The notes beneath the pieces were generated by a model that saw only the letters and a list, made by a program, of their open reading frames with translations, did no database searches and had not been told where the DNA came from. A stretch of 64,000 bases of DNA from Escherichia coli (GTDB lineage: Bacteria > Pseudomonadota > Gammaproteobacteria > Enterobacterales > Enterobacteriaceae): the NCBI RefSeq assembly GCF_013122565.1, contig NZ_CP053258.1. One strand, given 5' to 3'. Shown here one piece after another: positions 41,442 to 41,831 of the stretch. Within the stretch, counting starts at the first letter, position 1. Each line of letters starts with the position of its first letter. Both the position numbers and the translations under genes were made by a program.

Positions 41442-41591
41442 ATTGCGCTCCTGATTGTTGCAGGTAGTGTCTCTCTTCGAAGCGGATAAGTCAAAAACAT
41501 ATATGTTTTAACGAATGCGTATGTGCAGAGAAAGGTAATAGATGTGAGTTAAGAGTTGGGTATTTATTGGAAAAGACCTGAATCAGGACGT

Positions 41592-41619
41592 AAAAAAACC
41601 GACTTTGCGTCGGTTTTTT
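41592..41619. terminator. Symmetric hairpin with flanking A7/T6 (bidirectional terminator) between the IS element and arsR
   Basis: aaaaaaaccgac tttgc gtcggtttttt: perfect stem flanked by an A-run and a T-run. Confidence 0.5.
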
Positions 41620-41831
41620 ACTTTCCAGCCCTGAGTTGGTGGCTCTGGCTGGAGTGAGATAGTCATCATCTAACGCATCAATGCTAATACCATACTGAAA
41701 CTATTGCAAGGACGTGCTGGTTTTATAACCCGCAAGTACTGTATGATTATCCAGTTAGCTCTGAGACATTTTCACTCTGGCAATGCGCTTGACATCCTCC
41801 ACGCCCTGAATGACGAGGATCCCTGCTACGT

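Follow-up and report, generated by a model that had tools for sequence, protein, structure and literature searches.

Organization of the gor-arsR region

The window analyzed here, a 64-kb stretch of Escherichia coli DNA, includes the intergenic region between gor and arsR. The K-12 annotation gives the order of this region as gor, dinQ (on the opposite strand), agrA, agrB and arsR, and the window presents its reverse complement. The arsR coding sequence (41088-41441, minus strand) is recognizable by its ArsR HTH_5 domain and is preceded by a probable promoter at 41466-41494 (minus strand; -35 TTGACT at 41494-41489, a 17-bp spacer and -10 GACACT at 41471-41466), which we have assigned from the E. 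coli ars promoter. This probable promoter lies 97 bp downstream of a conspicuous hairpin (41592-41619), itself contained in a small RNA gene of the AgrA/AgrB family (41590-41673, minus strand), referred to below as agr. The agr gene has the same direction as arsR and is divergent from the LexA-controlled promoter of dinQ, which can be identified both from its sequence and from its homology to the K-12 dinQ promoter; the LexA operator, TACTGTATGATTATCCAGTTA, overlaps it at 41737-41757 (plus strand). There follows a remnant of the 5' end of the dinQ mRNA (about +1 to +35; 41754-41788, plus strand), the alignments to K-12 and to empty-site genomes both stopping at 41788.

At this point the region is interrupted by a copy of IS609, an element of the IS200/IS605 family (41789-43535, minus strand), whose ends are delimited by three unrelated copies; the name is that given by RefSeq to a 98.7%-identical copy. 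The element carries a tnpB gene for a protein of 402 aa (41832-43040, minus strand; Pfam OrfB_IS605 and Cas12f1-like_TNB) and, in the opposite orientation, the Y1 transposase gene tnpA (43056-43514, plus strand; Pfam Y1_Tnp), and it is followed by the conserved IS609 target GATAA (TTATC on the IS top strand) at 43536-43540. Just inside the 3' end of tnpB there is also a sub-threshold Rfam match to RAGATH-18 (41862-41905, minus strand; 29.6 bits against a gathering score of 44.9, E 0.0087), a motif associated with the guide (omega) RNA scaffolds of IS605-family tnpB genes; the guide flanking this match would be GCGCATTGCCAGAGTG, the reverse complement of 41773-41788. On the far side of the element a truncated dinQ coding region, from codon 3 to the stop, occupies 43536-43613 (plus strand), as judged by alignment to K-12 and to the E. 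coli strains ECNB21-M121 and 88-3493. The tnpA stop codon, TGA at 43512-43514, is in frame with this DinQ remnant seven codons downstream (43512-43613, plus strand), with no intervening start codon; the shared frame is probably a coincidence. Finally, a second hairpin, aagggcaaagag...ctctttgccctt at 43630-43664, is situated between the dinQ remnant on the plus strand and the convergent gor stop codon (43667, minus strand). This hairpin has been published as the terminator of dinQ and, in contrast to that of agr, is flanked by convergent genes.

The hairpin is the terminator of an agr small RNA gene

On the plus strand the hairpin near arsR reads aaaaaaa (41592-41598), ccgac (41599-41603), tttgc (41604-41608), gtcgg (41609-41613) and tttttt (41614-41619). 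The initial annotation of this DNA had placed a perfectly symmetric A-run, hairpin and T-run within 41560-41640; the element is certainly real, but with A7 facing T6 its symmetry is one base short of perfect. As an RNA from the minus strand it consists of A6 (41619-41614), CCGAC (41613-41609), the loop GCAAA (41608-41604), GUCGG (41603-41599) and U7 (41598-41592). Elements of this type, defined as an A-run of at least 5, a perfect stem of at least 5 bp with at least 3 GC pairs, a loop of 3-8 and a T-run of at least 5, are rare: the 64-kb window contains only this one, whereas 200 dinucleotide-preserving shuffles gave 0.005 on average. Even with a looser pattern that tolerates 2 mismatches it is still the sole site in the 64 kb (0 expected).

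The 41-nt segment that contains the hairpin folds more stably than all 200 shuffles on either strand (minus strand, -17.1 kcal/mol, z -4.8; plus strand, -15.1 kcal/mol, z -3.7). Its features are those expected of an intrinsic terminator, namely a 5-bp stem with 4 GC pairs, a 5-nt loop and a run of U7 on the minus strand or U6 on the plus strand. What counts against such a reading is that the core stem is short, with only 5 bp and -6.9 kcal/mol on the minus strand (-6.0 on the plus strand), although the stem including its A:U extension reaches -13.2 and -12.5 kcal/mol, respectively. Our automated terminator scan did not report the hairpin, apparently because the A and T runs pair into the stem and leave no T run behind it, and the miss is therefore no evidence against the hairpin. 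The earlier identification of an intrinsic terminator stands, with a canonical hairpin that aligns to the terminator helix of the Rfam AgrB model.

The identity of the surrounding gene comes from an Rfam scan of positions 40800-44200, in which AgrB (RF02891, gathering score 40 bits) matched 41590-41673 on the minus strand over its entire length (model positions 1-84 of 84) with 108 bits and an E-value of 1.6e-19. The hairpin is the 3' helix of this model, the terminator corresponding to model positions 55-81, and is followed by UUUUUUUAC; the complete 84-nt RNA folds at -30.6 kcal/mol (z -6.4). A probable promoter precedes the gene on the same strand at 41681-41709 (-35 TTGCAA at 41709-41704, a 17-bp spacer and -10 TAGCAT at 41686-41681). 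The transcription start at 41673 is a prediction for the window, placed there by the K-12 mapping; the 14 bases before it, including the -10 element, are identical to those of K-12 agrA and the sequence farther upstream is nearly so.

In K-12 the corresponding genes are well characterized. Both agrA and agrB were found by a search for promoters and terminators in this very intergenic region (Weel-Sneve et al. 2013, PMC3567139), and the same study reported consensus-like -10/-35 elements, rho-independent terminators, starts mapped by primer extension and 3' ends that stop 'around the rho terminator'. It also established in 2013 that the agr sRNA family of K-12 acts as the antisense antitoxin of DinQ, an SOS-induced, LexA-regulated membrane toxin. 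The terminator is marked again in the two-sRNA figure of Kristiansen et al. 2016 (PMC5066626), who showed that AgrB pairs with dinQ G88-A119, and Maes et al. (PMC5389530) describe the agr sRNAs as having 'their own promoters and terminators', AgrB being polyadenylated in the wild type and more abundant in a pcnB mutant. A literature search for Term-seq evidence on agrB returned nothing relevant.

The locus in the window resembles the K-12 dinQ-agrAB type I toxin-antitoxin locus in its place (from gor/dinQ to arsR) and orientation, and its agr RNA resembles those of K-12 in its UUAGAU start, its middle hairpin and a terminator identical to K-12's AAAAAACCGACGCAAAGUCGGUUUUUUUAC. It differs from K-12 in having one agr copy instead of two and in having lost the dinQ target. 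The single gene has an AgrA-type 5' antisense segment, GAUGAUGACUAUCUCAC, and an AgrA-like upstream flank, and its downstream flank is that of K-12 agrB.

Taken together, we consider it close to certain that the hairpin is the Rho-independent terminator, and hence the 3' stem-loop, of an agr sRNA gene that lies on the minus strand and has a probable sigma-70 promoter of its own. Our own analysis shows what the sequence is, that it matches the family, that it is chromosomal and where it lies with respect to the IS; that the promoter is active, that 3' ends fall near the terminator and that the sRNA acts as an antitoxin is known from the published K-12 work. The hairpin is therefore already known, being the published terminator of a published sRNA. 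Transcription would proceed on the minus strand from the sigma-70 promoter, beginning at 41673 and ending at the U7 run at 41598-41592. Once CCGAC-GCAAA-GUCGG and U7 had been transcribed, the GC stem would form, the weak rU:dA hybrid would melt and an sRNA of about 84 nt would be freed, whose 3' end the hairpin would afterwards shield. The bare spacer or insulator that the initial annotation saw here gives way to the 3' end of a gene; that reading had overlooked the agr gene, its probable promoter and the LexA-controlled promoter of dinQ, all of which lie between the IS and the hairpin.

Conservation and copy number

The agr segment is matched in 5416 of the 5426 complete E. coli genomes, and a rough count gives 9246 chromosomal agr places in these 5416. 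A REP-like repeated element can be ruled out, there being one copy in the window and 1-3 places per E. coli genome, the number to be expected of agrA/agrB. A genome-wide scan also returned 19-mer matches in Tepidimonas and Legionella, which are chance matches with no homology to agr.

The present genome has a single agr copy (within 41580-41700) as opposed to the agrA and agrB of K-12, which are 231 bp apart. Since a single agr is also found in E. albertii, Escherichia sp. E1V33 and other species representatives, the two copies may be a derived duplication within E. coli. The combination of a single agr with IS609 occurs in none of the 5426 complete E. coli genomes. In a comparison of window positions 39300-46500 with these genomes, the best identity was 98.3% for gor-rlmJ-prlC and 96.6% for arsRBC; the lineage of the window has diverged slightly from sequenced E. 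coli and probably belongs at the margin of this group or just beyond it, within Escherichia. When the window is compared with four other representatives of Escherichia, homology ends at 41580, 12 nt past the hairpin, and the ars operon beside agr is absent in E1V33 and partly deleted in SCPM-O-B-8794, so that the agr terminator marks the edge of a variable region.

The architecture of A-run, 5-bp stem and U7 is kept in all 13 Escherichia-type agr copies compared (the window, two from K-12, two from 88-3493, ECNB21, E. albertii, three further Escherichia, a two-copy E. coli and one from a metagenome-assembled genome, MAG). In the Escherichia copies the 5-bp stem is invariant and only the loop (GCAAA, GCGAA or GUAAA) and the length of the A-run (5-7) vary; the MAG copy, AAAAAAGCCCGA-uuaccag-UCGGGUUUUUUU, is built in the same way except that a C-G pair is shifted. 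In a Lachnospiraceae-binned MAG contig, an AgrB-family match of 62.8 bits (3081-3168, minus strand) has the different stem CCCGA/UCGGG, and a DinQ-like ORF is found 5.7 kb away (about 8850-8930, plus strand); the contig is probably of enterobacterial or plasmid origin and wrongly binned.

More distant searching recovered agr-like sequence in 631 plasmid records. The four plasmids that were examined (IncF, from Salmonella and E. coli) contain eight AgrB matches of 52-68 bits, one plasmid (L016) carrying five family copies within about 1.2 kb (360-1588). In three of the four the matches adjoin genes annotated as 'DinQ-like type I toxin DqlB', while the fourth (L015) has a 55.9-bit match with no dqlB listed nearby. 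Like the window agr, these DqlB-linked RNAs match Rfam AgrB and have the A6-(G)CCGAC...GUCGG-U7 terminator, all eight plasmid paralogues retaining AAAAAA(G)CCGAC...GUCGGUUUUUUU, one of them with a G-U pair; they differ in having a longer loop (CUCACCA), a diverged 5' antisense region and, in some cases, a tandem arrangement. The A6-stem-U7 terminator is the most conserved part of the AgrB family, nearly invariant across the chromosomal copies and the DqlB-associated plasmid paralogues. This comparative support is strong conservation and not covariation: the Escherichia copies show no covariation in the terminator stem, and the plasmid and MAG differences amount to a G-U pair, a shifted C-G pair and the loop. 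With no compensatory changes to draw on, the identification depends on the Rfam match and the published experiments.

Other readings of the hairpin

Hairpins do occur at the ends of IS200/IS605 elements, and this one is close to the 3' end of tnpB, so that one might take it for an IS end hairpin or a guide-RNA element. We regard this as extremely improbable, and it is rejected by the empty-site alignments together with the other IS609 copies. Three unrelated copies share their sequence exactly from TTGACATCC (41789) to ...GGCGCACCG (43535) plus GATAA; their flanks diverge exactly at the element ends and do not contain the hairpin, which in the window is 169 bp outside the end at 41789. The alignment of the window to K-12 breaks into blocks at 41000-41689 (arsR to agrB), 41580-41788 (agrA and the dinQ promoter) and from 43536 onward (the 3' part of dinQ, and gor), and the junctions at 41788/41789 and 43535/43536 are the same whether drawn from K-12, from ECNB21-M121 (a single-copy E. 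coli) or from 88-3493 (an E. coli with the same IS). Moreover, the hairpin is present only once in the window, and agr genes with the hairpin and no adjoining IS are found in K-12, E. albertii, Escherichia sp. E1V33 and two other species-level Escherichia representatives. By these alignments the hairpin is chromosomal, a native part of the gor-arsR intergenic sequence that predates the IS. The initial annotation had guessed as much and had proposed a comparison with K-12 as the check; that comparison puts the hairpin outside both IS ends (41789 and 43535).

A different possibility is that the hairpin is a free-standing and truly bidirectional terminator that insulates arsRBC against the IS and the IS against arsRBC. 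The symmetry of the A7 and T6 runs speaks for it, providing a hairpin and U-run on both strands (on the plus strand U6, with a core of -6.0 kcal/mol and a z of -3.7), as does the fact that a terminator scan of the minus strand from the tnpB stop to arsR found no other terminator-like site. In its symmetric A-run/T-run flanks and its capacity to present a hairpin and U-run on either strand the element is indeed similar to the bidirectional terminators of Ju et al. 2019. According to the account of that work in bioRxiv 10.1101/2022.10.23.513370, however, the mapped bidirectional terminators of E. coli lie between convergent genes, and it is here that the resemblance ends: agr and arsR are co-directional, the known transcript runs in the minus-strand direction only, and transcription of arsRBC leads away from the hairpin. 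No promoter-like site was found by scanning the plus strand between 40500 and the hairpin. Furthermore, the hairpin belongs to an sRNA gene, and it is present both in genomes without an IS at this site and in genomes without an adjoining ars operon. We therefore consider such a two-way insulator very unlikely, and the claim of bidirectionality is left without support. Termination on the plus strand, by the hairpin and U6, is structurally possible and might operate in vitro, though there is nothing known that would require it.

One part of the insulation idea does survive. Since tnpB, agr and arsR share the minus strand, with the hairpin the only terminator-like site found on that strand between the tnpB stop and arsR, transcription running on from tnpB and its guide RNA would be ended by the agr terminator ahead of arsR. 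More generally, it would halt any upstream minus-strand transcription ahead of the arsR promoter simply as a by-product of its position, the read-through in question being from agrA in K-12 and from agr and the IS609 tnpB/guide RNA in the window. We infer that insulation of arsR is a reasonable, if incidental, by-product. The converse protection that had been suggested, of the IS from the ars operon, does not apply because arsRBC is read in the direction away from the hairpin, and there is no known plus-strand transcription toward the hairpin.

The remaining proposal is an addition to the terminator reading and not a competitor of it: the A-run may pair with the U-tail to give the terminator a double-stranded base of the ProQ type, disfavoring Hfq. 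The predicted folds do pair the A-run with the U-run, and all 21 family members compared, from chromosomes and plasmids, keep the A6/U7 flanks, whereas their 5' antisense parts diverge. Stein et al. 2020 (PMC7367173) found an A-rich motif to be enriched in ProQ-specific RNAs just before the terminator hairpin on its 5' side, where it pairs with the oligo-U tail and so acts as a negative determinant of Hfq binding; the agr RNA likewise has six adenosines directly 5' of its terminator stem and complementary to its U-tail. Against this, A-tracts also simply increase the efficiency of termination, and the conservation could reflect nothing but recent common ancestry. In contrast to the RNAs of that study, AgrA and AgrB are linked to ProQ by no paper in the searchable literature, and the similarity is no more than a resemblance. 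We retain the proposal as a tentative one that is rather less likely than not. It is more speculative, and to our minds doubtful, to suppose both that A6-stem-U7 is a chaperone recognition module (ProQ-type, excluding Hfq) and not just a stop signal, and that an agr gene bereft of its local target by the IS609-linked dinQ deletion persists because its terminator shields arsR from tnpB read-through.

The disabled dinQ gene and the IS609 insertion

With the numbering of dinQ as in PMC5066626 and the coding sequence as in the K-12 annotation, the GUG start at G195 puts the +1 of dinQ at about 41754. The insertion of IS609 is accompanied by a 165-bp deletion in which dinQ +36 to +200 have disappeared, and with them the +44 processing site, the AgrB target, the Shine-Dalgarno sequence and the GUG start; from its sequence, the dinQ toxin gene is disabled. 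In K-12 both junction points come after a TTTAT motif, so that one end of the deletion coincides exactly with a second IS609-type (TTAT) target, which suggests a transposase-mediated adjacent deletion behind the 165-bp loss. The same IS609/dinQ junctions occur in E. coli 88-3493 and in five related genomes, three of them labelled O169:H41.

The agr antisense segment is intact, but its target, dinQ G88-A119, falls within the missing 165 bp, and a search of the 64 kb with up to 3 mismatches found no such target elsewhere. The 5' complementarity of some 31-36 nt to the dinQ 5' UTR that defines the family accordingly has no partner in the window, where agr is a member by homology and without a target. 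With the target deleted, the antitoxin function of agr cannot operate on this locus; the gene is intact yet could be decaying.

The intact LexA-controlled dinQ promoter (41737-41788, plus strand) now reads into the right end of IS609. A transcript from it would be antisense to the guide-RNA region of tnpB and to tnpB itself, and would then continue in the sense direction into tnpA (43056-43514). SOS induction might, by this route, influence this copy of IS609.

For the hairpin itself these results have little consequence beyond the correction of a misreading at the level of annotation, what was taken for a spacer insulator being the 3' end of a gene. The more useful product is an accurate map of this genome between gor and arsR, with one agr gene, an intact dinQ promoter that fires into IS609 and a disabled dinQ. 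In a small way the locus illustrates, from nature, how a type I toxin is inactivated by an IS200/IS605 element while the antitoxin sRNA stays.
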